The notes beneath the pieces were generated by a model. It was given only the letters and a program-made list of their open reading frames with translations. It had not been told where the DNA came from and did no database searches. From Clostridia bacterium (GTDB lineage Bacteria > Bacillota > Clostridia > Oscillospirales > CAG-272): a DNA stretch of 64,000 nt. This document shows, in pieces, positions 6,892 to 55,000 of the stretch. The translations under genes and the position numbers were made by a program. The stretch is from assembly GCA_017508195.1 (NCBI GenBank), contig JAFVZL010000039.1:18271-82270 (forward strand), written 5' to 3'. Every line of letters starts with the position of its first letter. Position 1 is the first letter of the stretch.

Positions 6892-6913
6892 ATCTGATAT
6901 CAGAAAAACAAAT

Positions 6914-25812: not shown

Positions 25813-25970
25813 CACGTTCCCCAACGGGGAACATATCGCGTTTCGCGCCGCGAAACATATCGCTCCGCCACAGGCGGAATATCGCGTCACCCCCGGTGAC
25901 ATATCGCGCTTCGCGCAAGCGAAGCATCATAACTGCTGCCCGCGGCAGCGCTGCTTCGCAGGTCGAAGCG
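25813..25970. repeat. hairpin-train element, family 1 (copy A): about 7 short GC hairpins; ATATCGC(G) occurs four times, separating the first five
   Basis: ATATCGC(G) occurs at 25833, 25857, 25879 and 25901 (spacing 24/22/22 nt). Each interval holds a perfect 6-7-bp stem with a 3-4-nt loop. Confidence 0.8.
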
Positions 25971-26039: not shown

Positions 26040-27362
26040 TTAGTTTGCAATATCCGCTTCTACGGCATCATTTTCTGTCGATTTTGCGCTCTCGCGTGCG
26101 AGCACCTCTATTTGGGTTTTGCGAGCCGAAGAAATGACGAATTGCACGATAACGATAACTGCCACCATCGCGACTGCGGCGGCAATGAAGCCGACGTTGT
26201 AGCTTTTTGTGATATCGTAGCAAAGATTGAACGCAGGGGAGCCGAGGGCATAGCCCGCGGTGTTCACCGAAACGAAGATACCGAGAACCTTGTCAAAGGA
26301 TTTTGCACCGAACAGATCGGATGCGTATATCGGCAGCATGATCGTTTCAAGCGGAAGTGCGAAGGATGAAATCGCAGAGTATACAAATGCAAGTGCAATA
26401 CCTAAGGGTGATGGGTCGATAAATACGAGTATCAGCGACGATATAATTGAGACACCGATACACCATGATGTGGTGGCTCTGAGTCCTGCCTTATCGTAAA
26501 TAACGCCCGTTAAAAACTTCGCGGCTGCGAGCACCAACGAATGGAAGCTGAGTATAAGAGATATCGTATCCGCATCGATATTCACGTCACGGTAATGCGC
26601 GGCAGTTACACCCGACAGTCCCTGAAGAATAAAGCCTGAGATAAAAATGCATACGAGAATTCCCCAGAAATACTTCTTGTGAAGTGCCTCCTTGAAGCTG
26701 ATACCGACCCAATCCGTACCGCGCTTTTTCTTTGCGCCCGATTTTGCCGGCACGGCATCTATCGGCTCACGCTTGGGGTCCTTAAAGAATATGAGAAGAA
26801 GAACGCCAACTACTGCAAGCACACAGGCAACGACGATATAAGCGGTTCTGTATCCCTCCGCGCCCGATTCGATGATCGGAGAAATGATCTGTATCGCTAT
26901 CGCTCCGCCGATACCGTTAGAGGCGAGCACCGCACCCATGATCGTACCTTTATTTTCCTTACAAAGGCGCGTTACAACGTATCCGACCATCGTGGTCGTG
27001 GTCCATGAAAGACCGATGCCGAGGAACACACCCGCGAGGTAAATAAGCCACACGTTAGGTGCGAACGCATACAGAAGTGTCGATATGATAAGCGAGCCGA
27101 AGCCTGCTACGATAAGCTTCTTCGGTCCGAATTTTGCAACGAGGAAGCCAAAGAACACGTTTATTATAGCAGTAGATACGTATCTGCAGCTGTCGGTGAT
27201 CGAATACACGCTTCGGTCGATTCCGAGCGCGTTGCTTATAGGAACGATATATAAGCTCTTAGGCGACGAGCAAAAGCCGAGCGCCACAAGAACCATCAGG
27301 AAGCAAAGTCCGATAATGACCCATTTGTAATCGAAGCGCTTCCTTTGATCCGAATTATTCAT
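26040..27362 (-). CDS. MFS transporter (440 aa)
   Basis: About 12 hydrophobic segments with a central basic loop (KDPKREPIDAVPAKSGAKKKRG). Subfamily not assignable by eye. Confidence 0.75.
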   Translation of the reverse strand: MNNSDQRKRFDYKWVIIGLCFLMVLVALGFCSSPKSLYIVPISNALGIDRSVYSITDSCRYVSTAIINVFFGFLVAKFGPKKLIVAGFGSLIISTLLYAFAPNVWLIYLAGVFLGIGLSWTTTTMVGYVVTRLCKENKGTIMGAVLASNGIGGAIAIQIISPIIESGAEGYRTAYIVVACVLAVVGVLLLIFFKDPKREPIDAVPAKSGAKKKRGTDWVGISFKEALHKKYFWGILVCIFISGFILQGLSGVTAAHYRDVNIDADTISLILSFHSLVLAAAKFLTGVIYDKAGLRATTSWCIGVSIISSLILVFIDPSPLGIALAFVYSAISSFALPLETIMLPIYASDLFGAKSFDKVLGIFVSVNTAGYALGSPAFNLCYDITKSYNVGFIAAAVAMVAVIVIVQFVISSARKTQIEVLARESAKSTENDAVEADIAN

Positions 27363-27518
27363 TTCTACGCCCTTCTTGTCTTACGAAAATTCATGAAGAA
27401 TTATAGCACCGCAGCCCCTTTTTGTCAACACGCAGCGGAAAAAAAGATCCATTCAAGCATGACGGAGCAGAAGAACGGTATAGATATGCGGGATATAGCC
27501 CCCGAAAAAGCCCGGATG

Positions 27519-27556
27519 AGAGAAAAGGCTGCCCGTGCATAGCATCGGGCAGCCTT
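27519..27556 (-). terminator. rho-independent terminator after the 27629..31639 gene
   Basis: AAGGCTGCCCG ... CGGGCAGCCTT, followed on the minus strand by TTTTCTCTC. Confidence 0.75.
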
Positions 27557-27628
27557 GCTGATTATTTTACATTCGGTGATAGTGTCAAGCCTTTATAACG
27601 GCACTACCGCCAAACATTCTTCTGAAAA

Positions 27629-30600
27629 TTACTTTTCAGTGATCGTTACGCTGGTCTCGGGAGCCACGTCAACAAGAACGTATCTTCTGCCGCTAGCCTC
27701 GGTATTGACCTTAAGAGTGAGGTCACCGCACTCAGCCTCAGCCCACGTTGCGGGAACGTACGCCTTAACGGTGAGAGGCATATCGTAGATATCGTCGCGC
27801 TCGTTGTCGGTAAGGCTTACGGTAAGCTCACCCGTCTCGGCGTTGTAGCTCGAGGTGGTCTTTGCACTCGACCACTCGTGATAGTAGAGAGCTGCATCGG
27901 TATAGTTTGCGATCCATACCTTATCTCCGTAATCAACTGCGTGCTTGAAGAGTGCCTCGCCCTGAACCTTGGTGATCTTGTGACCGCCCGAGCCCTCTTC
28001 ATCAAGAGTGTCGGTTATAGCGTGGATACAGTAGGATACCCATGCCTGCTTGGATACCGCGGTGTCAATATAGCCGATCCACTTTTCGAGATCGCTTTCT
28101 ATATTTGCCTCACTTGTGGTAGACGCGCTGAAGGAGAGAGTCTTCTGTCTGTTGTTTACAGAGGTGAAGTAGTCCTTGGTGTGGTATCCGCCGCCAGCCG
28201 TGTTACGGCAGCCGATCGTCACGCCCTCCTCGTACGCCTTATCATAGATCTCTGCCCAATAGGTACCGTGTCCGATGATCTGGGTGCCCTTGGGAATGGT
28301 GGTCGAATAATTGACTACCTTGATAACGGTGCCCGCGGGAATAACGCTGTTGGTGTATTCTGCATTCGTAGTGATCGCGGTTCCCGAGGGGATAGTGATC
28401 TTGTTGGAAATAAGGTCTATCACCGCATCCTCTGCAACGATAAGAACACCGTTCTGAACGGCTACCGCCGTATCCGACACGAGTCTTACAACGCTTCCGT
28501 TGAGTGTTACATTAACGTCGGTTTCAGTAGCCTTTGTCGAGCCTGTCACAGCAATTCCGGGAGTGATGAAGGTGATGGCTCTTGAGCCAAGATCTCCGAA
28601 GAGATCCTTTATCATCTGCTGAGCACCGAACATCTCCGCGCTGGTGCTGCCCTTGGCAAAGGTGGTAGGAGTCTTGCTGATAGTATCGCTGGAGTTTCCG
28701 ATAGCGAACATAGATCCGCCCTCGTCGTTAACACCCCAGAACTTATGACTGTAGGAGTGAGCGATTATCTCGCTTCTGCCGGGAGTTGCCGAGAGAATGT
28801 CGCGCCAGAAGTCAACGACAAGACCCTGGCTCTCGTCACCGTCAACGTACTTATCGATTGTGTAGGTGTAATTACCGTTCTCGTCCATTACGTACTCAAG
28901 GATTCCGTCACCGTCAAGGTCCTCGGTAATAAGAGTACCGAACTTGCTCGGATAAATACCGAAGGAAAGAGCGAGCTTCGGATACTTAAGAAGCATATCC
29001 TTGGCAAATCTGCCCGTACCGATAAATCCGTCGTCAATAACGAAGGATACGGTAGCATCAGCACCGTTCTTATTTACTACGGTCGAATCTGCATCGAGCT
29101 CACCCGTAACGTTGAGCTTGATGGTGTAGGTGGAGATCGAGAGTCCGTCAGCCGAGGTAACCTTAACCTTTACCTTGCCGTCCTCGAGCTCGCCTATCTC
29201 ATATCTTGCGAGAGTGGAGTTAGGAATAACCGAGATCTCACCGAAACCGGTGTTTATATCCGCATCAACGGTGTAATCGTAAACATCCGACTTGAAGCCG
29301 GGGATGAACGCACCGCCAACTCCTATAGCGAGAGCCGAGGAATCGGAGGGATCGGCTACTCTGTAGCTCTCCTTGTTCATACAGTAATCCTCATAGGTCT
29401 TATTAAATACTACTACTGCCGACTTGGTGTCGGAGATGCTTCTATAATACTCACCCCATGCCGCAACCGACTCGAAGCTCTCGACTACGATAAGAAGGTC
29501 GTCGTCACAGCCATAGAAGGGAGATACCTTAGCGGAAGCAGATGCAGGGATCGAGATAACGCTACTCGGAACGTAGATATCTCGAAGTGAGGTGCAGCCG
29601 CTGAATGCATTTATACCGATCTTGGCAACCGATGCACCGATATGGATGCTCTTGATGGAAGAAAGGTTCATAAATGCGTATGCTGGGATCTCAAGACAGC
29701 TGTCAGAAATAATAACGGTGGAAAGAGACGCGGGAACGAAGCTTGCACCCGCTGCAGCTGCATCAGAGCCGAAGAAGTATGCAAGGAACGGATGAGAGGA
29801 GTTCACACTGCCGCCGATAAACGGAACGGTGAGCTTCTCGAGCTTGTCACAGCCCTCGAAGATACCGAAGCCGATAGCAACAAGGCTGTCGGGAAGATCG
29901 ACCACTGCGAGTGCAGTATCGGCAAACGCCTTCTGACCGATGGTCTTAAGCTCGCTGGCACCGGTGGTAACAAGCTCACCATTAGCGTTTACACTTACGG
30001 AGAAGTCAGCGAAGTGAACGCCCGTAAGAGAGGTACAGCCGTAGAATGCCGCGTTACCGATGTTCGTTACGGTCTCGGGAATGTAAACGTACTTGATAGA
30101 TGTCATTGCGCGGAAAGCGTTAGACTTGATGGATACAACCTTCTCACCGTTGTAGGTAGAAGGAATAACAACCATAGAGGGCTCGCCTGTGATGCCCGTT
30201 ACGGCATATCCGCCGTCCACTGCCTCGTAGGTCAGCTCGGGGTTAACACTCGCTGTTGGGTCAGAAAGAACGATATTCATAACCGCGCTCATGGGAGAAA
30301 CGTAAACGTAGTTATCGTTTGCCTCAAAGCTTACGGTAACGATGTATCTGCCGGGCATCGTCTTTGCGTTGCCGGTAAAGCTTACCTTAACGTCAGCGGG
30401 AATATCACCGATAAGCTCGATGGATTTTTCCTTTCCGTCATAGATGAACTGAGTATCCTTGATAGATGCCGAGAACGCTGCCTTGTTGACTACGACGGTA
30501 GCAACCATGGGAGCAACGGGCTCATAGGATATCGAGGACGAGAAGGTCGCGGTTACGGTGTAAACTCCTACGTTAACGATATCGTCTACCTCATTACCGC

Positions 30601-31639
30601 TTTCATCGACTGCGGTATAAGTGACACCGAGTCCCGAGGGAAGCTCACCCGTGATCGCGGGCATCTTCGAGGTGCCGTCATAGGTCTCGACCGAGCCGAG
30701 AAGGTGAATTCCCGACATATCGTGAGTCAGCTTGTAAATGGACATGGTCGCACTCATATTCCCGATGGGCTCGTAGTTATCGCTGACCGTAAAGCTCGCG
30801 GTAACGGTATAGGTGCCGACGTCGGTCTGTCTGTTTCCAACGTAGCTTACCTCAACGTCCTCGGGAACGCCGATTGCGAGGATGGATTTGGGAGTACCGT
30901 CGTAAAGGAATGCGGCATCCCTCATGGATATACCCGTCACGGTCGCGCGTCTGATCTCCACGGTCGCGCTGAGGGGCTCCATATCATTATAGTTTACGGA
31001 ATCACCGACGAGAGTAGCCCACACGGTATATTCACCGACGTTTACGATCTCATCGACGGTATTTCCGTCCTTGTCCTTATAAACGTATGTTGCGGAAACG
31101 CCTGCGGGAAGTCTGCCCTGGATCTCACCTGTCACCGCTACACCGTCATAGATCTTGGTCGCTCCGACAAGAGTAACACCCGAAACGTCGTAGGTAGCCT
31201 TATTTATCGTAAGGGTAGCGGTCTTGGACTCACCCTCGAGCTTAACACCCTTAAAGTAGAAGTCCGCAGTTACCGTGTAGGTACCTGCATTCATATATCT
31301 GTTGGTGGAATAAAGCACCGTTATGCCCTCGGGCACGGTAGCCTTGTCAATAGACAGATCGTGATAGGTGCCGTCATAGGTGACGGTCTTATCGTTAAAT
31401 ACAACGCCCTTGAGGTCGGGAGCTTCTGTCTCAACGCCGGGGCCGGGGGTGGGATCGCCACCCTCGAGCTTCTCTTCGCACTTGTCGCAGATCTTATCAC
31501 CGTTGGCATCCTCGTGGACACAGGTATCGTCACCGCCGGGAAGAAGCGAATTAATAATATCGCAGGATGACATTGCAAGAACGAGCGCAAATGCCAGAGC
31601 GAGGAGAAGAATATGCTTGAATTTTAAGTTTTTCATCAT
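27629..31639 (-). CDS. giant multidomain surface lipoprotein: YDG/MBG-type repeats + BspA-type LRR + cadherin-like sandwich + polysaccharide-deacetylase (NodB/CE4)-like C-terminal region
   Basis: Lipobox LAMSSC|D. A CVHEDANGDKICDKC motif. At least 5 ~90-aa repeats with (K/T)xYDG(T/V)...VGxYTVTA. LRR units such as IPETVTNIGNAAFYGCTSLTGV. Cadherin-like GFKSDVYDYTVDA. NodB motifs VSFVIDDG and HSYSH. Confidence 0.75.
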   Translation of the reverse strand: MMKNLKFKHILLLALAFALVLAMSSCDIINSLLPGGDDTCVHEDANGDKICDKCEEKLEGGDPTPGPGVETEAPDLKGVVFNDKTVTYDGTYHDLSIDKATVPEGITVLYSTNRYMNAGTYTVTADFYFKGVKLEGESKTATLTINKATYDVSGVTLVGATKIYDGVAVTGEIQGRLPAGVSATYVYKDKDGNTVDEIVNVGEYTVWATLVGDSVNYNDMEPLSATVEIRRATVTGISMRDAAFLYDGTPKSILAIGVPEDVEVSYVGNRQTDVGTYTVTASFTVSDNYEPIGNMSATMSIYKLTHDMSGIHLLGSVETYDGTSKMPAITGELPSGLGVTYTAVDESGNEVDDIVNVGVYTVTATFSSSISYEPVAPMVATVVVNKAAFSASIKDTQFIYDGKEKSIELIGDIPADVKVSFTGNAKTMPGRYIVTVSFEANDNYVYVSPMSAVMNIVLSDPTASVNPELTYEAVDGGYAVTGITGEPSMVVIPSTYNGEKVVSIKSNAFRAMTSIKYVYIPETVTNIGNAAFYGCTSLTGVHFADFSVSVNANGELVTTGASELKTIGQKAFADTALAVVDLPDSLVAIGFGIFEGCDKLEKLTVPFIGGSVNSSHPFLAYFFGSDAAAAGASFVPASLSTVIISDSCLEIPAYAFMNLSSIKSIHIGASVAKIGINAFSGCTSLRDIYVPSSVISIPASASAKVSPFYGCDDDLLIVVESFESVAAWGEYYRSISDTKSAVVVFNKTYEDYCMNKESYRVADPSDSSALAIGVGGAFIPGFKSDVYDYTVDADINTGFGEISVIPNSTLARYEIGELEDGKVKVKVTSADGLSISTYTIKLNVTGELDADSTVVNKNGADATVSFVIDDGFIGTGRFAKDMLLKYPKLALSFGIYPSKFGTLITEDLDGDGILEYVMDENGNYTYTIDKYVDGDESQGLVVDFWRDILSATPGRSEIIAHSYSHKFWGVNDEGGSMFAIGNSSDTISKTPTTFAKGSTSAEMFGAQQMIKDLFGDLGSRAITFITPGIAVTGSTKATETDVNVTLNGSVVRLVSDTAVAVQNGVLIVAEDAVIDLISNKITIPSGTAITTNAEYTNSVIPAGTVIKVVNYSTTIPKGTQIIGHGTYWAEIYDKAYEEGVTIGCRNTAGGGYHTKDYFTSVNNRQKTLSFSASTTSEANIESDLEKWIGYIDTAVSKQAWVSYCIHAITDTLDEEGSGGHKITKVQGEALFKHAVDYGDKVWIANYTDAALYYHEWSSAKTTSSYNAETGELTVSLTDNERDDIYDMPLTVKAYVPATWAEAECGDLTLKVNTEASGRRYVLVDVAPETSVTITEK

Positions 31640-31650
31640 TTACTCCTCCT

Positions 31651-34600
31651 TTAGTTTTCGTCGGCAGAGGACGAATCGACTGCCGTCGAGAATGTGTGCA
31701 GACTGTGGCCTGTCACACCGACTACGTTACCGGGAACTCTCGAACGAATTACCTCGGGATCGTCTACGCTTATATAATAGGTCTTGCCGTTGCTTGCAAC
31801 GATAGTTACGGTACCGCTTGACTTGTCGTAAGTGTATCCGTCCTTGACGAATCTGATTACATCTCCGTTCTCGAGCTCGAGAAGAGATATTCCGAAGCCG
31901 TATCTTACGTATTTAGCCTCGGTGATGCCGTCGGCTGTTAGAGTGATGGTTCTGCCCTCGGCGGTAGCCTTGGCGGGCACGAATACCTTATCCTCACCCG
32001 CGATCTCGAAGCCCTCGATCTCATCACCGTAAAGAAGAACGAAGTCACGGTCGAGAGTTACCTTAACCTCGGCACCCTCGGTCACTACCTCCTCGACCTC
32101 GGGGTTAGCGATAACTACGTTATCATCCTTGAAGTATACGTTCTCAAGAATACTGTCTGCCATCGCAAGACCGATGGGAGACTTTCTTACTGCGTGGACG
32201 TGTCCGTACTGGAAGCCGTCTCCGGCATCATACTTGAAGTCGCCCTTGGAAAGAGTCGAGCCTACCCAGTTCGCGCCAACGAGATGATAGTGGTCGTTAC
32301 CGCTCGCGATGCTCTCCTGATATGCACGGAAGAAGGAGGGAGCACCCATGTGCGCGGGAAGCTGAACTATAAAGAGCTCGAGTGGATCGTTAGCCTCGCC
32401 TACGTTGCAGGTATCGGTGAAGGTAGCGTAGAGCTGATCGATGTTGAGGCCGTAATATCCGTCACCGAACTCGTCACACTCACTCGCATCCGCTGTAGCT
32501 TCGCCCTGATACCAGCCCATGCCCTTGATATTGTATCCCTGAAGGGGAGCTATCATGGCATTGTAGATCTGGTGCTCGGCAGCGGAGCTCGAAGCCATAG
32601 GATCGTAGGCGTTAGAAATAAAGTTGGATATTGCCTTACCGTTATAGTTAAGGTCAATTATTGCTATGGTGGGGTTGCCCTCAAGCTCGACCGCAAGTCT
32701 TGTAGCCATTACGTAGCCTACCGCGGAAATACCCTCGGTGCTGTCGTCTCTTGAAAGAGTCTTGCTGTTTACGTCGAACCAGGACGCTCTGCCAAAGTCA
32801 TCGAGCACGCTCTCAGAGAGGCTCGCACCGATGCTGAAGCAACGGATGTTATCGTAGTTATCCGCAAGAGCCTTATACTCAGCGAAGTCCTCCATCTTGT
32901 AAGCGCCGAAGTTAGCGTTACTCTGACCTGCCATTACCCATACCTCACCGATATCGATATCGGTATAGGTCGCACCGCCGAACTTGCCCTCCTCCTTAAC
33001 GTCGAGGGTGAGTCCCTTGGCATAATCCATAGCGGGAAGAGTGGCATTCCACTTTCCGTCAGCGACGGTAGCGGTCACACTGACATCACCGAGAGTTACG
33101 GTGATAACCGAGCCGTTCGTGGAGCAGCTTCCCCATACGTTTATAGGCTTACCTGCCTGGAATACCATGCCGTTTGCGAACAGCTTGTTATTTATCTGAA
33201 GCTTAGTCACGTTATCTCCACTCATAAGTATGTATGTTCCCGATACGGTATCAAATACGAGCGTGCACTCACCGTCAAAGGTATGCGTACCCGAAACACC
33301 GTTCTCGGCACGGATAACGGTATTGCCGTCACCCTCTCGGAGCATAACGTTACCCGAAGCGAGGGGAACGTCACCGAGTGTAATATCACAGTCGCTTATT
33401 ACGATGGGATAAGCCGTACCGTTTCCGATAAAGGGAGTATTAACCGTATTTACCTTGCAGTCCTTGAGCCACATTTTATTCGTAGAGCCTGCCGCGGTCG
33501 TACCGACTCTGCTTACACCGTCGAACTCGCAGTTCTTGAAATAAATGCTGGAGTCCGTGGAATGGCTAACAACGGGAATCGAATTAACGAGTCCCTTCTC
33601 GGCAGCTACACCCGAAATGGCAACCTTGAAATTACAGTTCTCGGCAGTCATAAATGCCGTGGACTGAAGATAGATCATCGGGAATGAAAGCGACGATTTA
33701 TAGTAGTAATCATATGAATACCTATTGTTGGCATCGGGACCGAGAGTAAGATCGCATCCGTAATCCTCACCAGTGTAGGTAAAATCAACGTTATCCATAT
33801 AGAAACGGCAGTCCTGAAGCTGGATCATATTAGCCGATCCGTTGGTTACCTTACCGTTTGCGATCTCAGTACGGATCCTACCCGAAAGGTTCGTTTCAAC
33901 GAAGTCTATATTAGTGAAGCTTACGACAGACTCGGGGTCAGCATTATTGACGTAGATCAGACCGCCCGCATATCCTCTGAGCTTGACAGTGCATACGTTG
34001 CCCTCGGCATCCGCGCCGTCAATAGAAAGACGGAACAGTCCGCCACCGCTGAAGAAATGAGCCGCTCTTTTGTTTCCAACGTCAAATCCGTTAAAGTCGA
34101 GGAATAAGGAGCCGTTGCCGTTGCCGCTGCCAGTAAGACTCGTCGCAAGGTTATTACGCTCAGCAACAACCTTAGTGACCGCTGCGGTAGCAACAGTTTT
34201 TACATCGAATGCCGCACCAAGAGCTCCGGCACCCGAGAGTATATTATTGTAAAGCGTCTCGCTTACCTCTCCTCTGTCGGGAATGATCGTTACGGTGGTA
34301 ACGTAGCTCGCGCCGCTCTTATCAACGAGAGTCCACTTTCCGCTCTCGAGCTCGGCAAGCTCTGCATGAGCGGTAGCAACGGTGAGGGACTCCGAAACGT
34401 TCGCGGTAGGCACGTCGATAAGCGTGCTACCCGTGCCGTACCAGAGCTTGATCATATCCTTGGTCGCACCTGCACCGAGAATGGAAACACCGCTGAAGGA
34501 AACGCCCGCACCGTGGAATACGTCACCGTTCACGTCGGACGCACCGCCGAAGATAGCCTGAGAAGCCACAAACGAGGTGTCAACAGCCGTACACCAGCTG

Positions 34601-35370
34601 CCCGCCGCCATACGGTATGCGGTACCTGCGGCGATCTTGGAGCGTTCAAGTCTTACGGTAGAGCCCTTTGCGTAGACACCTATCGATGCATCGGTTGACG
34701 CGGTAATCTCAGAGCCGATAACCGTAAGGTCAACGGTATCAGCCGCTACGAGCACCGGGCTCGCACCCGTTTCTAGAGCATTGTGGGTGACGTCTGCATT
34801 TCTGAGGATGAGCTCACCCGCCGTACCCTTGGCACAAACACCGTATACGTCGATAACGTCAGCAGAATAAGTGATATCGATATCGTAGATCTCTGCATAA
34901 GCAACGGAGTCGAGCGCGATAACACCGTTATACTGATCAGCCACAAGTATGCCGCCGACCTCGGCGTCATAGTTATATCCGCCGTCAATCTCAAGTACCG
35001 CGAGATCCTTAGCAGAAATAACCGATCCGCCCTCGGTAGCAGTTATACCCGAGAAATCGAGCGTGTAACCGCCAAGATCAACGTACACGCTCTCGACACC
35101 CGTACCGCCGAGCGCTACCCGCTTGGTTGCCGCAGCATCCGAGAGCAGCTTAAGTGTAGCAGTACCGGCACCGAGTGTGCCAACCTTTTCACTGAGCTCC
35201 TCTGCCATCGCATCAAACGTACCCGTCACCGTGGTAGCATCGCCACTCGCGGGGGACAGGATAAGCTGTGCCTCGTTCGTGCCCTCTGCCGAAGTCAAGA
35301 GCACGAGGCTCACAGACAACAGAAGCGCAAGAACGAGAATGACAGAGATAATTCCAATCCTTCTTTTCAT
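31651..35370 (-). CDS. giant secreted protein: beta-helix-like N-terminal ~800 aa + sialate O-acetylesterase (SASA/SGNH)-like C-terminal domain
   Basis: Signal peptide. Gly/Thr/Val-rich ~20-25-aa periodic region. C-terminal FANGMVFQAGKPINVWG ... GEVWVMAGQSNA, which is the family hallmark. Start at ATG 35370 (AAAGGAG SD). 11 nt upstream of the next gene, so an operon. Confidence 0.75.
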   Translation of the reverse strand: MKRRIGIISVILVLALLLSVSLVLLTSAEGTNEAQLILSPASGDATTVTGTFDAMAEELSEKVGTLGAGTATLKLLSDAAATKRVALGGTGVESVYVDLGGYTLDFSGITATEGGSVISAKDLAVLEIDGGYNYDAEVGGILVADQYNGVIALDSVAYAEIYDIDITYSADVIDVYGVCAKGTAGELILRNADVTHNALETGASPVLVAADTVDLTVIGSEITASTDASIGVYAKGSTVRLERSKIAAGTAYRMAAGSWCTAVDTSFVASQAIFGGASDVNGDVFHGAGVSFSGVSILGAGATKDMIKLWYGTGSTLIDVPTANVSESLTVATAHAELAELESGKWTLVDKSGASYVTTVTIIPDRGEVSETLYNNILSGAGALGAAFDVKTVATAAVTKVVAERNNLATSLTGSGNGNGSLFLDFNGFDVGNKRAAHFFSGGGLFRLSIDGADAEGNVCTVKLRGYAGGLIYVNNADPESVVSFTNIDFVETNLSGRIRTEIANGKVTNGSANMIQLQDCRFYMDNVDFTYTGEDYGCDLTLGPDANNRYSYDYYYKSSLSFPMIYLQSTAFMTAENCNFKVAISGVAAEKGLVNSIPVVSHSTDSSIYFKNCEFDGVSRVGTTAAGSTNKMWLKDCKVNTVNTPFIGNGTAYPIVISDCDITLGDVPLASGNVMLREGDGNTVIRAENGVSGTHTFDGECTLVFDTVSGTYILMSGDNVTKLQINNKLFANGMVFQAGKPINVWGSCSTNGSVITVTLGDVSVTATVADGKWNATLPAMDYAKGLTLDVKEEGKFGGATYTDIDIGEVWVMAGQSNANFGAYKMEDFAEYKALADNYDNIRCFSIGASLSESVLDDFGRASWFDVNSKTLSRDDSTEGISAVGYVMATRLAVELEGNPTIAIIDLNYNGKAISNFISNAYDPMASSSAAEHQIYNAMIAPLQGYNIKGMGWYQGEATADASECDEFGDGYYGLNIDQLYATFTDTCNVGEANDPLELFIVQLPAHMGAPSFFRAYQESIASGNDHYHLVGANWVGSTLSKGDFKYDAGDGFQYGHVHAVRKSPIGLAMADSILENVYFKDDNVVIANPEVEEVVTEGAEVKVTLDRDFVLLYGDEIEGFEIAGEDKVFVPAKATAEGRTITLTADGITEAKYVRYGFGISLLELENGDVIRFVKDGYTYDKSSGTVTIVASNGKTYYISVDDPEVIRSRVPGNVVGVTGHSLHTFSTAVDSSSADEN

Positions 35371-35439: not shown

Positions 35440-35467
35440 ATTTTAGCATAACGAACGTACCGTGTAA
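35440..35467 (-). promoter_or_regulatory. candidate sigma-A promoter (extended -10) of the 35370<-27629 operon
   Basis: Read on the minus strand: TTACAC, 16-nt spacer, TGcTAAAAT. About 70 nt upstream of the start codon. Confidence 0.5.
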
Positions 35468-35651
35468 ATTGACACTCTTCACAAAAAAAAGAGGGGCTTA
35501 TACCCCACTAAGCATAAAGCTTTGAATATTTTTTACAAATATTTTCTCCCTTTTTAACGAAATTTCAAAAGAGAGCAAAATGCAGCATAAAAAACGTAAG
35601 AAAACTACGCCGACAAGCCGTTTTCAGCGGTGTCGACTCGGGAAATGCAAC

Positions 35652-47697: not shown

Positions 47698-50691
47698 TCA
47701 TGAAGGAAGGTTTGCGTAAGACTGCTCAAGAGCCTCAAGGCTGATCTGCTTCTTGGTTCTGAGACGAGCATACTCCTCGGAAATTGCAGAAGCTTCCATC
47801 TGGAACTTAGCAGCGAGGATCTGGTTGTGCCACTTCTCACCGTTCATCTGGGTATCACCGCTCTTCATGTAGTGCCGCATAATTGCGTCCTCGTACACCT
47901 TATCAAAGTCGGAGCGAATATTTTTACGAATGTAATTGAGCATTTCATTGCTCTCCGGAGAGCTTACTACATCAGTCCTAAGTATCATATCGTAGTAATC
48001 TTCCAGAACATCGGCAGAATTCAGCGACTGATAATTCAGGAACGCTGTGCACTGAGCAAACTTAGTGGTCTTTACGCCAATTGCTCCCACGCGTGCGAGA
48101 TTGTGTATTGAGGTTTTATAATTATCCACCCTCACCGCTCCGTCGACGTCGACGTAGCTCGTTCTGTAAAGCGGCACGGGAACAGCGCCGAATCCGCCGC
48201 CTTCCTCTGCAACCATACCACCGTAAGCGCTATCCTCAAGATGACCGAGCAGAACTATTCCGCCGAAGAGCACCTGATTATTTGCAAAGGCATAGCGAGC
48301 AACGGTCTCAGTAGACTCGGTAGACTTGGTGTTGGAGGTGCCTGCATCCTTGTTGATACAAACAACACCGGTGGACTCGAAGAGTGCCTTAAGGTTGCCC
48401 GCAAACTCCTCGAGGGGCTTGGAAGCGTTTGCATCCTTCTCGGAATCCGGATAGCTGAAGGTATAATCCTGATAATAAAGGGGATCATCGGGTCCATACG
48501 TCCAATCCGTCTTCATCTCTACTTCTCTGTCAATTATCTCAACCGACGTCGAATAAAGCATACCTGCAGCGCTAAGGCTGTTCGAGGCTACCGCGAAGCC
48601 GTAAACGCCCTTACCGTCGGGGTTAAGAACGTCGGAGGTATCGTTGGGAGCTATGTATATAGAGTTGGAGAAGCCCTTTACTGCATCGTAGTTCCAAAGA
48701 CCGTCAGCAACGAGTCTGTAGAAGTCGTAGAGCTCGTATCTACCGTTCTCGTTGTAGTCATAGTTCCAATCACCCTTGGTAGTGCTGACGTTAGAGCCGA
48801 TACCATCCTCAATAAGGGAGATGTTAACGGGAACCACGTATGCTGCGCGAATAGTATCGATAAAGTAATCGGATGCCAGAATGTATATCTTACGCTGAGA
48901 GAGGCTGAGCGACTGCATATACTCGATCATATATCCGTCACCCGTGTCCACATAATCAGAGTTATACTTTCCGTCCTTGGCGAACGAGAAGTAGTTCTGA
49001 AGCTCACCCGTCTTAACACCCTCGGATGAAACCTTGTTGGTGTAAAGGTTATTGAACGCACCGAGAAGCGATGTCGATACCATGTCGTAAACAAAGTTAC
49101 AGAACATGTCCGGTCTGCCCGTCACGGTGTCGGAGGTCGCTGCTGCAAGCATCTTCTCGATACCTCCGCCCCATCCGTATCCCGAGGAGTTGGGATAGTA
49201 GACATATTGAACGTCAACGTTTGCGTACTCGCAAGCAAGAGAGTTTCTATTCTTTGCGTTCTGCTCAACGAAGCCGGTATAGTCGGACTCACCGGAGAGA
49301 AATCTTCTCGATCCCGATGAAAGCTCATCGTTGTTGGTGTTATCGGTCATCTGGAACAAAAGCTGTGTCTTTGTTGGCCAGGTTACCGCCGGAAGACTCT
49401 CACCGTTAACGCCCGCAGCGGGCTTGTTATTGCCGATTATCTCCGCACCGCAAACATCGCATTCTCTATCGCTGTTCTGATCAGCGTGAGGGTAGCACCA
49501 CTCGGTAGGGATACCGTCCACGTAACGCCAATATCCTTCGGCATCAGGATCAACCGCCGAATAATAGAGCACCGTCTGCTGAATTTCGCTGGGAGCTATC
49601 TCCGCCCAGCTATCAGCAGTACCATTATAGTATATAACGGCATTTGCCGGTAGTACAACAAACGTTCCGTATTCGATACCGCTAAGCTCGGAGCTTATTA
49701 CCACGTATTCAAGTCTGGAGCAACGCCAGAATGAAAAGCTGCCAAGATTCTCTACACCATCTCCAACCCTCACGGACCTTATACTATTATTAACCGTGAA
49801 GCTAATGCTAAAGATAGAATATTTTTCACCCATGAAATCATCGGGTAAAGCTATATCCGTTTCGGAGCCAACGTAATTAACGAGATAATTTTCACCTTTG
49901 TAACTGTAGAATAAAAATCCGTCAACGTTCGTAACTTGGCTTTCGTCATCTCTGACGTCGATGGCATACTGTGCTACACCGCCGTGCTTGGTGCCACCTG
50001 CTACTACATCGAGCAGCGAGTGATTGATAACCTCGACAAGGCCTAGACACTCGCTAAACGCGCCGTCCTTTATCTCGGTAACGCCCGAGGGAATAGTAAC
50101 GCTGCTCATTCCGCTATACGCAAACGCTCCCTCGCCAATGGTGGTGATGGTATCCGGCATTACTATCTCGGTAAGCGCGCCGTTGCGCCTTGCCTTAGTA
50201 TGATCGAAACCGTTAGGCGCTATCTCGGTAACCGACCTTCCTTTGTAGCTCGGCGGAATAGTAACTTTTGTTAAAAAGCCCGAATTTCCGGCAGCAACCA
50301 TATAAGTACCGTCGTCCTTGAGGTAAAAATCGAGTCCCTGAGGGTTATCATCATCACCAACCTCAGCCTTAACGTCGGTCTTTACACCGTCGATTACCCA
50401 ATAGCCATCCTCACTTATCTCAATGACAGGCGTGTGACCGTCTTTACCGTCCACACCGTCTTTACCGTCCACGCCGTCTTTTCCGTCAACGCCGTCCTTG
50501 CCGGCATCGCAGGCGACCTTTCCGACTATCTTCTCGGTGCCGTCGCTATATATGAGCAAAAGCTCACCGTCATCATTCACCGTAACGTCGGTAATAAGCC
50601 TTTCAACACCTAGCACCTCGCACGATGAGAAGAGGAATAGTGACACAACGATCAGTAAGAGAGTCGCCAATAAGTATAGCCTTTTCTTCAT
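47698..50691 (-). CDS. large surface lipoprotein: collagen-like GKDGVD repeats + BspA-type LRR + Cys/Asp motif + ~560-aa C-terminal region of uncertain (possibly solute-binding-protein-like) fold
   Basis: Lipobox LFSSC|E. (GKDGVD)x4. LRR units (TIGEGAFAYSGMSSVTIPSGVTEIKDGAFSEC). A CYPHADQNSDRECDVCG motif. AAGGAG SD. Confidence 0.7.
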   Translation of the reverse strand: MKKRLYLLATLLLIVVSLFLFSSCEVLGVERLITDVTVNDDGELLLIYSDGTEKIVGKVACDAGKDGVDGKDGVDGKDGVDGKDGHTPVIEISEDGYWVIDGVKTDVKAEVGDDDNPQGLDFYLKDDGTYMVAAGNSGFLTKVTIPPSYKGRSVTEIAPNGFDHTKARRNGALTEIVMPDTITTIGEGAFAYSGMSSVTIPSGVTEIKDGAFSECLGLVEVINHSLLDVVAGGTKHGGVAQYAIDVRDDESQVTNVDGFLFYSYKGENYLVNYVGSETDIALPDDFMGEKYSIFSISFTVNNSIRSVRVGDGVENLGSFSFWRCSRLEYVVISSELSGIEYGTFVVLPANAVIYYNGTADSWAEIAPSEIQQTVLYYSAVDPDAEGYWRYVDGIPTEWCYPHADQNSDRECDVCGAEIIGNNKPAAGVNGESLPAVTWPTKTQLLFQMTDNTNNDELSSGSRRFLSGESDYTGFVEQNAKNRNSLACEYANVDVQYVYYPNSSGYGWGGGIEKMLAAATSDTVTGRPDMFCNFVYDMVSTSLLGAFNNLYTNKVSSEGVKTGELQNYFSFAKDGKYNSDYVDTGDGYMIEYMQSLSLSQRKIYILASDYFIDTIRAAYVVPVNISLIEDGIGSNVSTTKGDWNYDYNENGRYELYDFYRLVADGLWNYDAVKGFSNSIYIAPNDTSDVLNPDGKGVYGFAVASNSLSAAGMLYSTSVEIIDREVEMKTDWTYGPDDPLYYQDYTFSYPDSEKDANASKPLEEFAGNLKALFESTGVVCINKDAGTSNTKSTESTETVARYAFANNQVLFGGIVLLGHLEDSAYGGMVAEEGGGFGAVPVPLYRTSYVDVDGAVRVDNYKTSIHNLARVGAIGVKTTKFAQCTAFLNYQSLNSADVLEDYYDMILRTDVVSSPESNEMLNYIRKNIRSDFDKVYEDAIMRHYMKSGDTQMNGEKWHNQILAAKFQMEASAISEEYARLRTKKQISLEALEQSYANLPS

Positions 50692-50726: not shown

Positions 50727-51950
50727 TTACGTATTGTTCGGTTCAGTTTTCGCCTTTGAAGGCTTCACCGAGCCTGACCTCAGCTTGTTTATCAGAATGA
50801 TAACGCCTACCGATATGACGGATATCAATATCCATGAAATGAACATCGGCACATAGCCGAAGCTCTTGATAACGATGCCGTATATCGCGCTGGAGACGCC
50901 CGCTCCGAGATAGGATGCGAAGTCGAGAAGTCCCGAAACCGAGGATACATTACCCGACTCGAGATAGCTCATCGGATATATCGAGGTAATTGAGGTGTTT
51001 ATCATCGAGGTCGATGCGTAGACTACGCCCAGTGCTACCACCGCGACCGCGAGTCCAAGCCCGGAAAACAAAAGAACGACCGATGCCGCAAGACAAACGG
51101 CAAAGCCGAAGAGCGCGACCGAGTTCTCCCTCTCACGAAACAGCTTTAGGAAGAAGGGGTATATCAGCCTTCCGATAAGACCTATCACGGGGATAAGCAG
51201 AACGTAATATGCCGACTCACCGAGGTCAACGCCAAAGGCAAAAGCGGTATAAGCCACCATCCACACCGTTACGTTCTCCTTCATAACACCGTGAAAGACC
51301 GACGGGATGCACATAAGAAGAATATCGCGGTTTTTCAGAAGACCGAATATCGAGCTGTGCGAGCGCTTGTCCTCTACCTCATCGGCAGGAGATATCTTCC
51401 TCGTAGCTAGAAATACTCCGCCACCGAGCAGGATATTGAGAGCACCGGGGATGATAAATGCAAACTCCACGCCAAAGGCGAGTATAAGCCATCCGCCAAG
51501 AAGTATAGCAATTATATTTCCGCTTGCAACCGCCGTTACCATAAGCGAGGTCATACGCTTAAGATACGGTCCCTTGTAGATAGAGGATACAACGCACAGA
51601 ACGCTCGACCAGAGCATCGACTGTGCATAAGCGTTTATGCTCCACAGAAGCAATATTCCGATATATGGCGGAAGAAATCCGATAGCGATATTTGCCGCGC
51701 CCGCGACACCGAGACCGATGCTCAGCATAAGCCAGGGCGGTGCCTTGTCACCGATAGTGCCGTTCACGAGTCTGCCTATCGAATATACGGTGGAAAAGAG
51801 TCCGCCGATAACGCCGTAGCCCGCCGCGTCAAAGAGCGACATAGCCTCGAGCGAGGGCTCGGCAACCGAAAGATTTACTCTCGAGATATAGATAGATGTG
51901 TACGCAAGATATACGATAAGGTATATCAGGCGTTTTTTATTAGCGCTCAT
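50727..51950 (-). CDS. MFS transporter, organophosphate:Pi-antiporter (GlpT/UhpC)-like
   Basis: 12 hydrophobic segments. N-terminal YISRVNLSVAEPSL ... GRLVNGTIGDKAPP resembles the OPA-family signature. Confidence 0.7.
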   Translation of the reverse strand: MSANKKRLIYLIVYLAYTSIYISRVNLSVAEPSLEAMSLFDAAGYGVIGGLFSTVYSIGRLVNGTIGDKAPPWLMLSIGLGVAGAANIAIGFLPPYIGILLLWSINAYAQSMLWSSVLCVVSSIYKGPYLKRMTSLMVTAVASGNIIAILLGGWLILAFGVEFAFIIPGALNILLGGGVFLATRKISPADEVEDKRSHSSIFGLLKNRDILLMCIPSVFHGVMKENVTVWMVAYTAFAFGVDLGESAYYVLLIPVIGLIGRLIYPFFLKLFRERENSVALFGFAVCLAASVVLLFSGLGLAVAVVALGVVYASTSMINTSITSIYPMSYLESGNVSSVSGLLDFASYLGAGVSSAIYGIVIKSFGYVPMFISWILISVISVGVIILINKLRSGSVKPSKAKTEPNNT

Positions 51951-52021: not shown

Positions 52022-55000
52022 TTATTCTGCCGTAAGAGCAACATTAAACACGGGCATCGGGAGACCCGAAGCATTCGTGATATTACCGTAGTCAATGGTT
52101 CTTAAATACTCGGTCGCATCATTTAGAGTATATACCACACCGTTCTTCGCGGTGATGGTGATAGTCTTTGCGGTAGCATCGGTCTTTACCGATGATGTGT
52201 TAAACTCAACGACCGTACCGTCACCAAGCTCGGCAAAGCACTCACCGTAAGCGTATCTTACTCTCGTAGCAGTGCCGCCCGTAGCGGTAAGGATGATCTT
52301 ATTACCGTCAACCGCACCCGAGGCATCGACCCACGTGCCGTTAACCAGAAGCTCGAAGCCGATAGGCTTATCTCCGAGAAGGAGCTTGATATCAGAGTCA
52401 AAGGTAAGAGTTACGGTAGAGCCCGAAACGGTAGCCGAGATAAGCTCGGGGTTGGTATACTCGTTAGCGAAGGTGAAATCGTACTCGTTGGCGAGTATCA
52501 TCATTGCAGCTCTCTGTCCGATGGTGGACTTTCTTCCGGGATGGATATATCCCTGATCAAAGAGAGTGAAGCCGTGAACAGCTCCGTCGAGCATGTTCGT
52601 TACGAGATAGGTATTATCGAGAGCCTCGCAGAAATCGTACTGCTCTGCCTTGAAATCGGCAAGATCCGCAGAATCGTACGAGCTGCTTACGAAGGGAGCG
52701 AGCTCCATTACGTAGAAGGGGAGCTCAGAATCGTTACCGAATACGCGTCTGTATACCTTCTCAAGCGCAGTGAAGTACTCGGTATAGGTAGTACCCTCAA
52801 CGCCGAGAGAGGTCTTGCTTACATCACCGCAACCCTGATACCACATTACACCCGCGACCTCGAAGCCCTCGAGGGGAGCGATCTGGTGATTGTAACAAAC
52901 CGTACCGAGAGTCGTATGACCCTTAGTAGGAAGCGTCAGACTGCTGTCATCCATATATTCCTTTATCTTAGCTGCCTCTGTGGGAGAGAGCGTAAGGAGA
53001 GCCTCGTAGTCTACCCACGCCTTGATCTTACTTGCACCTCTTGCAACGTGCATCAGTGCGATCGGAACGTCGGGGCCGAGCTCGTCTGCGAGCTTAGCGA
53101 CTGCGGCGTAGCCTGCCGCCGACATAAGAGAGGTGGAGCGAACGCTCTTGCCGTCAACCTTAGACCATGAAGCGGAGCCGTACTTTGAAGGATTGGCAAC
53201 GAACGAAGCCGATGACTTATAAAGGCGGATATTGCCGTATGCATCCGCAAGGGTAGCGAACTCCTCAACGTCCTCCATGTATCCCGCCTGGAGCTGAGCG
53301 TTACTCTGTCCCGACATTACCCAGACCTCGCCGACGCATACGTCGGTGAATTCAACTATGTTGGGAATGGACGCGTTCGTCTGCTCAACGGTAAGAGTAA
53401 GATTCCATTTTGCCTCCGCGATAGCGGGAAGCTCAATATAGAATTTGCCGTTTTCATCGACCTCGGTAGTACCCGAGATATCACCGAGCGTTACCTTAAG
53501 CTCCGCCTCGGTATCATCGCAGTATCCGAATACGTTTATAGTCTTTCCCCTCTGGAATACCATTCCGTTTGCGAATACGGCGGGGAAGGTGATAGGCTTG
53601 GGAGCACTGACACCGCTTGTGAGCTGATACTGACCCGAGCTTGTAGGAACCATTGCGTAGCCCTCGTTTGTAATGTAAATGCCGCTGAGAGTATTACCCT
53701 TGGTATCAACTACCGTAAGGCACTTCTCCGTCTCGTGAATGTTGACCGTACCGCTTGTAGCGAGAACGCCCGAATCAACGGTAATTTTTGTATCGTAGAT
53801 ATGCGAAACACCGCCCGTAAATACGGTGCCGGTTACGTTAAGCGTGGAGTTCATCACGGTTGCCGTTGCATCCGCACCGGTCGACATTGCCGCATAGCAG
53901 CCGTTAACTGTGAGGTTATCCGCATAGACCACAGCCTCAGCACTTAAATTGAAGGGGTATACCTTAAGACCCGAGGAGGATGTATCGTACGCCTTTACGT
54001 TCTTAAGGTGTGCAACGACCTCGGGACCGAACGAGTGGTCGAAGCCGCAAAGGTAAACGTAGGTATTGGTAGCAGTCTCGCTAAGCATCTCACCCGTGTA
54101 AGTAAGATCCACGTTCTCGAGGTAAGCCGAGCCCGAGTTGAAGTTGATAAACGCGTTAGAGCCCGCAACGCCCATATTGGTTGCAACGAAGTTGATATTC
54201 GTCACTCTCGTCACAGTCTCACGGTTGTTGATACCCGTAGAGCTCGACTGACGGGGATAGAGGAACATAAAGCTACCCGAATTTGAGAGCATCGTGCCGC
54301 GCTTGCCGTCAACGTCGGCACCGTCAAGCGAGTAGTGCATATCGCCCACATAGGCGAAGGACTTTGAGCCGGTTTCCTTCCAAGTGAGATCGTAGCCGTT
54401 GAAATCAACTATTACAGAGGTGTTATCGTTACCCGCGAAGGAGTAGTTCGATGCGATTTCGGCATTCTGTAAAAGAGTGCATATACCGACGGTAGCCTCG
54501 GTAGCAGAGCCGGTGATCGCACGCTTGATGCCGTCGGCACCCATACCCTTAACGTAGGATGAGTGGTAGGTAACAACGGGAGCCTCGCCTACCGAAGCGG
54601 TGGTAGCCATAGCTACCCTGGAGCTCAGGGTACCGGTATACTTAAGCACGTAGGTCTCACCGACGAGCACGAACTCGCAGCCTGTCTGCGCGAAGCTGCC
54701 TCCGTTAGGTGCATCACCACCCGCAACCGTCATTTCACCGTCACCATAGTAATAGAGGGGCGCCGACGTGTTGAGCTTCGAGTTATCGAAGAGTTCCGAG
54801 CTTACGAAGAGATTACCGCCGAGAATATAGAGCGTATTATTCTCCGAGGTGGAGTTGAAGGCTATAACAGCCTCGAAATCAACGGATGCAAGGAGCGCGT
54901 TGGCAGCCGTGCCGTCCGTCTCACTCAGGTTAAGTATCTTTCCTGCGAAGATATCTCCGCCCTCAATATAGCCGTTAGCACCGTAGAGATCAAGAACGAG

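Follow-up and report, generated by a model that had tools for sequence, protein, structure and literature searches.

A β-helix-fused CE20-type esterase and a leucine-rich repeat lipoprotein with a NodB-like domain, encoded side by side in a gut Clostridia genome: a candidate surface deacetylation pair

Acetyl decorations block glycoside hydrolases (GHs). One way of organising their removal is exemplified by Roseburia intestinalis, in which La Rosa and co-workers are said to have described, in 2019, a CE2 and a CE17 enzyme that form a complementary esterase pair on acetylated mannan. Here, we consider a 64,000-nucleotide stretch of the metagenome-assembled genome of a Clostridia bacterium (contig JAFVZL010000039.1), hereafter called the window, in which two adjoining genes on the minus strand, EST1 and LRR1, code for a predicted secreted β-helix protein with a CE20-type esterase module and for a leucine-rich repeat (LRR) lipoprotein with a NodB-like domain, respectively. 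We propose that the two gene products constitute a co-transcribed surface pair of O-acetylesterase and NodB-type deacetylase acting on an extracellular acetylated glycan, with the LRR tethering the esterase, a proposal whose chances we judge to be about even. What would be common to both organisms is that two deacetylating enzymes, presumed to address different acetyl positions of one polymer, are encoded together. The Roseburia enzymes, however, are soluble and belong to a full locus with GHs and an ATP-binding cassette (ABC) transporter, whereas here SGNH and NodB-like domains are found on giant, presumably surface-located proteins with no GH.

What defines the CE20 family is an SGNH domain flanked by one β-sandwich on its N-terminal and another on its C-terminal side; members bearing an ancillary insert use a water-mediated Ser-His-(H2O-Asp/Asn) triad, and Ser-His dyads have been reported for members that are devoid of it (PMC12313940). 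With CE20/SASA proteins such as XacXaeA (7KMM), Fl8CE20_II (9H4U) and the insert-less sialic acid esterases (8F9O-R), EST1 shares the FANGMVFQ...VWG sandwich signature, the GQSN and WYQGE motifs, the block V His and the C-terminal sandwich and, like the insert-less members, it has no Asp two residues ahead of that His. It differs from them in a β-helix of ~700 residues upstream and a conserved tail of ~75 residues downstream, in the Ser/Thr of block III, and in being partnered by an LRR lipoprotein rather than residing within a polysaccharide-utilisation locus or GH operon. The host differs as well, being a member of the Clostridia, whereas the similarity network of insert-bearing CE20 proteins comprises Bacteroidota and Pseudomonadota only (PMC12313940).

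On the side of the deacetylase, the closest solved relative is BoPDA (BACOVA_03992; apo structure 4DWE) from Bacteroides ovatus, a CE4 domain that is inserted in a carbohydrate-binding module, belongs to a capsule locus and has yet to show any activity; together with the chitin oligosaccharide deacetylases of Vibrio (3WX7, 4NY2), it belongs to the divergent NodB1.3 class of CE4 (PMC11713874; PMC10967932). The C-terminal domain of LRR1 shares with this class the MT1 Asp pair and the MT5 His and, by its model, may also have the barrel with large loop insertions followed by a β-sandwich, yet it has no detectable sequence similarity to it. Whereas BoPDA has lost one of the MT2 histidines, LRR1 keeps both; MT3 and MT4 are divergent in BoPDA too. 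Further differences are a β insert of ~80 residues and the position of the domain at the end of a 1,336-residue MBG/LRR/cadherin-like lipoprotein from Clostridia, not Bacteroides. With the BspA-type LRR proteins (TpLRR 6MLX, 4FS7, 4GT6, HupY/LrrG), LRR1 has the LRR_5 repeats and a surface-protein architecture in common, but its LRR stands between immunoglobulin (Ig)-like repeats and an enzyme-like domain, and its gene is coupled to that of an esterase. Finally, pectin-lyase-like β-helices and SGNH esterases directed at acetylated surface polysaccharides are also the folds of phage receptor-binding proteins, such as G7C gp63.1 and those of Klebsiella prophages (PMC13123978). In contrast to these, EST1 is chromosomal, syntenic with housekeeping genes, equipped with a Sec signal peptide and of CE20 type, and neither a phage context nor a trimerisation or chaperone domain is seen. 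The locus is no new kind of system; it combines a new architectural variant of CE20, a NodB-like family invisible to profiles and a recurring pairing of the two. The pairing itself appears to be undescribed; only work on CE20, on BoPDA/NodB and on phage SGNH proteins surfaced in the literature searches.

EST1 (31651..35370, minus strand; 1,239 residues; MBR7117122.1, IKC87_05380) and LRR1 (27629..31639, minus strand; 1,336 residues; MBR7117121.1) have the extents, the orientation and the 11-nt distance between stop and start that the original prediction, made on this DNA from its letters alone, had given them. In the NCBI annotation, EST1 and its paralog EST2 are each a "hypothetical protein", and LRR1 is a "leucine-rich repeat domain-containing protein". 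The start of EST1 is placed at the ATG at 35370, which is preceded by an AGGAG ribosome-binding site and agrees with orthologs beginning with MKKR; an alternative ATG at 35397 was dropped for these two reasons. A single promoter-like site lies 5' of the two genes (35440..35468, minus strand; TTTACA-17-TAAAAT with a TG extension, a match to consensus only), immediately past a terminator-like hairpin (35493-35506), and the only terminator is found 3' of LRR1. The latter is an intrinsic-terminator-like hairpin (27518..27554, minus strand; GGCTGCCCG-N10-CGGGCAGCC followed by TTTTCTCTC), which was read by eye together with its T-rich tail, as its 10-nt loop exceeds the limit of the scan. With this operon-like spacing, EST1 and LRR1 would form a two-gene operon.

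Beyond this terminator, where a transporter gene had been expected, lies MFS1 (26040..27362, minus strand), a major facilitator superfamily (MFS) transporter of the oxalate/formate or monocarboxylate type (Pfam MFS_1). In NCBIfam, it comes closest to the bile-salt, L-lactate and OFA families, yet stays far under the cutoff of each, and it scores 30 bits against a sialate transporter model with a cutoff of 604. Because a perfect sigma-70-type promoter of its own (27400..27428, minus strand; TTGACA-17-TATAAT with TG, from a consensus scan) follows the terminator, MFS1 would be transcribed on its own, and it is probably a conserved neighbour outside the enzyme pair: it is present in the related loci L005, L049 and L050 and absent from L001. 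The original prediction had counted the MFS gene as part of the unit, which is not supported in view of this promoter, of the MFS-less L001 and of MFS1 being unrelated to the MFS gene of the second locus. Nor is this a locus of the polysaccharide-utilisation type, since only MFS1 adjoins, which is not of the sugar-porter type, and the nearest GH (GH2) lies ~6 kb beyond it with several unrelated genes in between.

EST1 begins with a signal peptide (35284..35370, minus strand; residues 1-29), whose cleavage is predicted between ...LLTSA and EG, and the SAE junction is conserved among orthologs. The following ~700 residues (33196..35283, minus strand; residues 30-725) are modelled as a right-handed parallel β-helix, as anticipated by the original prediction. 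The AlphaFold2 (AF2) model, computed from a 10-sequence alignment, is all-beta with short strands (predicted local distance difference test score, pLDDT, 85; predicted template modelling score 0.87), and Foldseek searches of the PDB and of viral models returned right-handed β-helix proteins exclusively. These include two-helix PL6 alginate lyases, Ag43, GH55, pertactin, AlgE4 and phage tailspikes or depolymerases, with E-values from ~1e-4 (PDB) and 4e-6 (viral models) and TM-scores of only ~0.18. In the model, the similarity is one of fold and not of membership in any polysaccharide lyase (PL) or GH family, and Pfam Beta_helix stays below its cutoff (15.4 bits against a threshold of 25.9). An alignment of 24 members reveals almost no invariant polar residues in the helix, only D425, N427, D451 and D660 being near-invariant. 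A tandem-duplicated module within it was considered and rejected, because its halves (27-353 and 354-731) have no BLAST similarity to each other; longer relatives (P0041-P0046) repeat the second half of the helix.

The CE20/SASA module (31876..33195, minus strand; residues 726-1165) is composed of an N-terminal β-sandwich, an SGNH domain without ancillary insert and a C-terminal β-sandwich. The SASA hallmarks ascribed to EST1 in the original prediction are borne out, both FANGMVFQAGKPINVWG and GEVWVMAGQSNA being present and the Pfam SASA profile (PF03629; gathering score 24.8) scoring 28.5 bits in EST1 and 35.5 bits in EST2; its fusion of a β-helix to a SASA/CE20-type acetylesterase is likewise supported. 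Residues 723-1160 align colinearly, in three segments, with the CE20 structures 9ega, 7kmm (XacXaeA, the founding member of CE20) and 9h4u (Fl8CE20_II), and the insert-less esterase 8f9o gives one aligned segment, so that EST1 is assigned by sequence the sandwich-SGNH-sandwich architecture of CE20. Block I corresponds to G815-Q816-S817-N818 with Ser817 as the putative nucleophile, and the block V His to H1059; across 24 family members, down to 23% identity to EST1, GQSN, W.QG, H1059 and K1063-S1064 are invariant. The ancillary insert of ~200 residues is absent, query positions 913 to 931 spanning chain residues 201 to 410, and the Asp/Asn two residues before the His is missing (G-H-V-H in EST1, G-Y-I-H in EST2). 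With neither the insert nor the block V Asp, EST1 fits the insert-less, dyad-type subgroup of CE20. In place of GESN, block III has GEAT in EST1 and GCGD in EST2. The invariance of the esterase motifs, set beside the drifting helix, argues for a predicted active esterase in which the helix would serve as scaffold or in binding. A conserved C-terminal tail (31654..31875, minus strand; residues 1166-1239), ending in ...FSTAVDSSSADEN, completes the protein; N1215, G1221 and F1227 are invariant in it, orthologs terminate in SSSAGEN, and residues 1166-1239 gave no family match.

LRR1 and LRR2, its counterpart at the second locus, are both predicted lipoproteins with a signal peptide and a lipobox Cys, judged by eye against a PROSITE-type rule; the lipobox of LRR1 reads ...VLAMSS-C26, that of its orthologs ...ALASC or FASC. 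Behind the anchor of LRR1 follow five YDG/MBG-like Ig repeats (30245..31417, minus strand; residues ~75-465) with a YDG period of ~80 residues, BspA-type LRRs (29390..30232, minus strand; residues ~470-750) and a cadherin-like β-sandwich (29105..29347, minus strand; residues ~765-845). The LRR named in the original prediction is clear (Pfam LRR_5, threshold 27.7: 103.8 bits and E 8e-30 in LRR1, 59.6 bits in LRR2), and its matches include 4fs7, 4gt6 and TpLRR (6mlx) in the PDB and HupY/LrrG in NCBIfam. The YDG/MBG and cadherin-like modules, also named there, hold as visible repeats and a borderline match, but not by Pfam thresholds, with MBG at 19.8 bits against 25, MBG_2 likewise under threshold, and Cadherin-like at 23.6 bits against 24.2 (E 6.9e-5).

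Near the N-terminus of LRR1 stands a Cys/His motif, CxHxDxxxDxxCDxC (31478-31522, minus strand; residues 40-54). The same motif, as C-x-H-x-D-x(3-5)-D-x(1-2)-C-D-x-C, was also observed at residues ~399-417 of LRR2 (49441-49497) and in all EST-linked LRR lipoproteins (L001, L002, L005, L049, L050), where it is N-terminal; it recalls a small metal-binding knuckle.

The last 492 residues of LRR1 (27632..29107, minus strand; residues 845-1336) comprise the NodB-like, CE4-superfamily-like domain and a C-terminal β-sandwich. In a Foldseek search of the PDB, the AF2 model of this region (pLDDT 88) has 4dwe/BoPDA as its top match (E 1.7e-5, probability 1.0), followed by a GH66 group with lower probabilities and then by the Vibrio chitin oligosaccharide deacetylases, PdaC, BA3943 and 2J13 at probabilities of 0.9-0.98. 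The near-invariant motifs of the family are VNKNGADATV-x-F/Y-V-I/L-DDG, H-S/T-x-x-H-x-F/Y-W-G-x-N/D-D-x-G-G, an Arg and C-I/L-H. Among these, VIDDG (D869, D870), HSYSH (H961, H965), the Arg and CIH (H1206) are conserved in all family members and lie at strand ends in the model, where their placement resembles that of MT1, MT2, MT3 and MT5 of CE4. The motifs agree in the model with MT1 (T/V)xDD, MT2 H(S/T)xxH and the MT5 His; R1145 (R-N/G-T) could stand for MT3 RxPY, and a clear MT4 DxxD(W/Y) was not seen in LRR1. The putative metal-binding and catalytic residues are thus D869, D870, H961, H965, R1145 and H1206. The ~80-residue β insert is specific to the esterase-linked clade of the NodB-like family. 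As modelled, the domain is NodB-like by fold and active-site signature and not a demonstrated member of CE4. A CE4 assignment at the level of sequence was rejected, as no profile matched, and none of 20 homologs (0/20) carries a precomputed Pfam domain in this region.

The pairing recurs outside the window. Orthologous genes in the order EST, LRR/NodB lipoprotein and MFS, at ~50% protein identity, were found in L005 (a Clostridia metagenome-assembled genome, MAG, from sheep colon), L049 and L050/L051 and in part in L002/L004 ("uncultured Ruminococcus sp."), each time amid the same housekeeping genes. In L001, an EST gene adjoins that of a 608-residue LRR lipoprotein of the same N-terminal make-up in a different context, with no MFS gene and with relaxase and recombinase genes and a DegT/Bac_transf/acetyltransferase/GT4 polysaccharide-synthesis cluster around it. 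The LRR lipoprotein is the constant partner of the β-helix esterase, and the MFS transporter is not. A fusion protein, P0046 (2,199 residues), unites three or four EST-type β-helix modules with LRR_5, a cadherin-like module and a NodB-like domain, has no CE20 esterase, and is a Rosetta-stone link between the EST1 and LRR1 proteins. Finally, in a separate clade (L053 6133-10001; L057 316-4184; L058 1-3090), a 616-residue GDSL/SGNH esterase gene is followed 18 nt downstream by that of a NodB-like lipoprotein of 666-670 residues without LRR; the L053 pair adjoins a GH106 rhamnosidase, and another NodB-like member lies near GH78 and CE2. By hhalign, neither the L053 GDSL protein nor a 1,053-residue protein of L054, which likewise precedes a NodB-like gene, is related to the β-helix profile. 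Across all these loci, the succession of an SGNH esterase and a NodB-like lipoprotein recurs and is not random, in support of the esterase and putative deacetylase pair named in the original prediction. By eye and over a short stretch, the GDSL esterase and its NodB-like partner seem moreover to have an N-terminal domain in common, ...E(A/S)VY.E(I/V).GY.N...

The family is rare. An exhaustive HMMER search of 1.84 billion cluster representatives with the β-helix profile recovered 43 proteins (24 at E<1e-30), mostly of 1,190-1,270 residues, with a few longer ones that carry extra helix modules. Among GTDB species representatives, full-length relatives occur in 2 MAGs only, the other matches being to the CE20 module alone and mostly from Bacteroidota; a word-indexed homolog search with the β-helix alignment gave 3 proteins only, and a metagenome scan with the NodB alignment gave one locus.

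What has been shown is which domains the two proteins contain, that their catalytic motifs are conserved, that the genes are spaced as in an operon and that the pair recurs; from this, we infer enzyme activity, surface location, physical docking and substrate along the following lines. The domain assignments in EST1 and LRR1 are the part held with high confidence. EST1 would be exported by its monoderm gut Clostridia host via the Sec signal peptide; its β-helix would most likely serve as a rigid stalk or glycan-binding scaffold, and its CE20 module would remove O-acetyl groups by means of a Ser-His dyad made up of Ser817 (GQSN) and His1059. LRR1 would be lipid-anchored at Cys26, with the MBG-like Ig repeats and the BspA-type LRR reaching outward to the BoPDA-like NodB domain, whose putative Asp-His-His metal site is complete and whose putative catalytic Asp and His are in place. 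This domain would take a second acetyl class, that is, N-acetyl groups or O-acetyl groups out of the esterase's reach. The LRR module may tether the otherwise unanchored EST1, possibly through the conserved C-terminal tail of EST1, and the two activities, exerted next to each other, would open an acetylated polysaccharide outside the cell to glycosidases. As to the substrate, the GH106, GH78 and CE2 genes near related NodB-like genes hint at rhamnose-containing acetylated plant or microbial glycans and not at sialoglycans. A wider generalisation would see here a modular surface deacetylation pair of gut Clostridia, in which an SGNH esterase docks by its C-terminal tail on the LRR of a lipoprotein that carries a member of a Pfam-invisible NodB-like deacetylase family, realised with two unrelated esterase types and in one fusion, and directed at both acetyl classes of one glycan; this we consider tentative and rather unlikely.

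Several observations weigh against the proposed pair. The clade of EST1 has Ser/Thr in place of the block III Asn/Asp and His/Gln in place of the block V Asp, so its catalytic competence is not guaranteed, and BoPDA, the closest solved relative of the partner domain, is without activity on any tested substrate. The original prediction had named NodB motifs in LRR1; VSFVIDDG, HSYSH and the modelled fold uphold this, but its own profile test fails, as Polysacc_deac_1 (PF01522) gave nothing on the isolated 492-residue domain at Pfam E<=10, nor did NCBIfam. In addition, a family profile of 18 homologs matched no PDB sequence, and the Foldseek TM-scores of the domain are low (0.3-0.4). The conservation among L005, L049, L050/L051 and L002/L004 is that of orthologous, syntenic loci; it is one evolutionary event and lends little independent support. 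The LRR partner in L001 lacks a NodB domain altogether, which makes this domain dispensable for the role of the EST-LRR pair. Within the window, EST1-LRR1 has no GH, sugar transporter or regulator immediately joined to it. Docking between EST1 and LRR1 is conjectural throughout, and both docking and substrate are held with less confidence than the proposal as a whole.

The main rival explanation is that the pair remodels the cell's own envelope by editing O-acetylated peptidoglycan, a secondary wall polysaccharide or a capsule, in parallel with Ape-type O-acetyl-peptidoglycan esterases and PgdA/PdaC-type CE4 N-deacetylases. An envelope role would be fitted equally well by the ddl and Asp/Glu racemase genes between the two loci and by the polysaccharide-synthesis genes beside relatives, namely the DegT/Bac_transf/acetyltransferase/GT4 cluster next to the L001 pair and the GT4 glycosyltransferase that follows the EST2-like esterase in L006; likewise, BoPDA, the best structural match, is encoded in a capsule-biosynthesis locus, and the peptidoglycan-type CE4 proteins PdaC and BA3943 are among the fold matches. 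However, ddl and the racemase gene lie on the opposite strand, >4 kb away and among the housekeeping genes prmC, tsaD, rex and a dnaD-like gene, which amounts to ordinary synteny, and relatives of the NodB-like lipoprotein adjoin GH106, GH78 and CE2 genes. A huge β-helix and adhesin-type LRR/MBG modules would also be unusual in housekeeping wall enzymes, and the rarity and patchiness of the family are unlike those of core wall-maturation enzymes, so that we rate this explanation as possible but on the unlikely side. It is distinctly unlikely that the two proteins have merely an adhesin or surface-layer role, with β-helix, MBG, LRR and cadherin-like modules for attachment and with esterase and NodB-like modules that are binding-only pseudoenzymes. 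BspA-type LRR proteins are classic adhesins, of which the NCBIfam match to HupY/LrrG is a reminder, CE4 pseudoenzymes do exist (BA3943, among the fold matches, being a case in point), and the non-canonical block III and block V residues of EST1, together with the inactive BoPDA, would suit such a role. Yet the Ser nucleophile, the His base and GQSN/W.QG remain invariant down to 23% identity while the β-helix drifts freely, and all CE4 metal and catalytic motif residues are conserved in the NodB-like domain, including the MT5 His, whose loss marks inactive CE4 proteins.

The β-helix could also be a lyase or hydrolase in its own right, which would make EST1 a bifunctional, tailspike-like depolymerase aimed at the capsule or exopolysaccharide of other microbes. 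SGNH esterases and β-helix depolymerases are the two dominant enzyme folds of capsule-targeting phage receptor-binding proteins (PMC13123978), and two-helix PL6 alginate lyases, GH55 and phage depolymerases or tailspikes are the top fold matches of the helix. These matches, however, are at the level of fold (TM-scores ~0.18) and the non-enzymatic Ag43 and pertactin score alike; since near-invariance in the helix is confined to D425, N427, D451 and D660, with no conserved Lys/Arg/His and no lyase or hydrolase acid pair, a depolymerase is very unlikely. The original prediction had suggested a de-acetylation front end for a decorated glycan such as an O-acetylated sialoglycan or a capsule/mucin-type polymer; in the sialoglycan or mucin version of this reading, the MFS transporter would import the released sugar. 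MBG-type repeats are found in mucin-binding adhesins, the family is named SASA and has PDB relatives titled sialate O-acetylesterase, and a NanA-like aldolase of the dihydrodipicolinate synthase (DHDPS) family and a GH20 gene lie 20-25 kb upstream. SASA is merely a family name, though, and the bacterial CE20 enzymes characterised so far act on xyloglucan and xylan, with clusters predicted to span pectin, N-glycan and xyloglucan (PMC12313940). Furthermore, the aldolase is under both NanA cutoffs and separated from the locus by unrelated genes, no Pfam GH33 was found among the open reading frames (ORFs) scanned, and MFS1, with its own promoter, resembles monocarboxylate and oxalate/formate transporters more than sialate transporters. 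A sialoglycan front end thus appears highly improbable.

The second locus of the window had been described as having the same make-up as the first, which holds for the esterases and for little else. EST2 (52022..55684, minus strand; 1,220 residues; MBR7117139.1) has a β-helix and a CE20 module and a perfect promoter at 55746-55775, and it is the paralog that the original prediction had recognised, its alignment with EST1 running over the full length (28% identity, E 3e-77); the motif SLDGADV(E/D)GK, said to be shared, is exact in EST2 and reads SIDGADAEGN in EST1. The gene order, however, is EST-MFS-LRR instead of EST-LRR-MFS, and MFS2 (50727..51950, minus strand), an organophosphate:phosphate-antiporter-like (UhpC/PgtP-like) transporter, shows no pairwise similarity to MFS1. 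LRR2 (47698..50691, minus strand), a 997-residue lipoprotein with the lipobox ...LFLFSS-C, collagen-like repeats, LRR_5 and the Cys motif, resembles LRR1 over ~235 residues of the LRR only (24% identity) and in the short Cys motif. By sequence comparison, the likeness of the two loci reduces to esterases that are true paralogs and to an LRR lipoprotein of a generic kind close by, and the idea that the second is a copy of the first is not supported. Nor is locus 2 conserved as a unit, as indicated by the layout of L006, where a counterpart of EST2 (6555-8399, on the L004 contig of an "uncultured Ruminococcus sp." MAG) has 614 residues with a CE20 module and no β-helix; a GT4 glycosyltransferase gene and one resembling MFS2 come after it, and LRR2 has no counterpart there. 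LRR2 itself carries a collagen-like repeat, GKDGVD x4, near its N-terminus (residues ~62-86; 50434-50508), with a weak match to NCBIfam SclB. Its C-terminal 577 residues (~421-997; 47698-49428) have no match in Pfam, NCBIfam or the PDB and are similar neither to the ABC solute-binding protein of the window nor to the NodB-like domain, and the exact protein was not found in a collection of 15 billion sequences.

The GC content is ~50% throughout the window, with no compositional break at either locus. Between the loci lie genes for DUF1385, prmC, ddl, Asp/Glu racemase, a nucleotidyltransferase, tsaD, rex and dnaD- and dnaC-like proteins, and the part of the window below locus 1 contains GH20, GH77, an ABC sugar transporter, a GH2 glucuronidase-like protein, a GPH transporter and the NanA-like aldolase. 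The latter (5881-6891) scores best against N-acetylneuraminate lyase models but under their cutoffs (221 bits against 281), and adjoins an AraC-type regulator 20 kb from locus 1. Scans of the window with Rfam and for tRNAs gave nothing. An element of ~125 nt, in which GCGATAT stands behind each of four or five short GC hairpins, occurs three times on the minus strand: two copies lie upstream of EST1 (35665-35787 and 35843-35965) and one just downstream of the MFS1 terminator (25829-25927), thereby bracketing EST1-LRR1-MFS1 in the same orientation. It has no Rfam match and is probably a species-specific intergenic repeat, because the bracketed block is syntenic in other species. The idea that these arrays delimit a mobile insertion was rejected, the block being syntenic at ~50% identity in L005, L049 and L050.

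Other repeats were observed as well. A 105-nt tandem repeat of ~3 copies (94% matches) occupies the intergenic region upstream of EST1 (36146-36475), next to an ORF of 205 residues (36479-37096) without a family match, and two more direct repeats, D8 and D11, spaced ~235-244 nt, lie in non-coding DNA (25341-25808) between an ORF at 24675-25340 and MFS1. Downstream of the ABC sugar transporter, a 481-residue ORF (16217-17662) without a family match contains an internal 624-nt duplication (D1, D3; 77-88% identity), and a 603-residue Endonuclease I protein (59099-60910) has a double zinc-ribbon region and an internal 98-nt direct repeat, D7.

The value of these observations lies in annotation and enzyme discovery, and current understanding is not overturned by them. 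Access to many polysaccharides in gut and rumen, whether they come from the diet, the host or microbes, is governed by deacetylases. Should the proposed pair be real, proteins now annotated as "hypothetical" would make up a Clostridia clade of CE20 with a new architecture, fused to a β-helix, insert-less and of dyad type, and the NodB-like domains, which bear the full CE4 signature and go unseen by profiles, would be a candidate CE4-related family and a target for curation in Pfam and CAZy. A further gain would then be a testable example, from a monoderm, of a secreted enzyme being tethered by the LRR of a lipoprotein.

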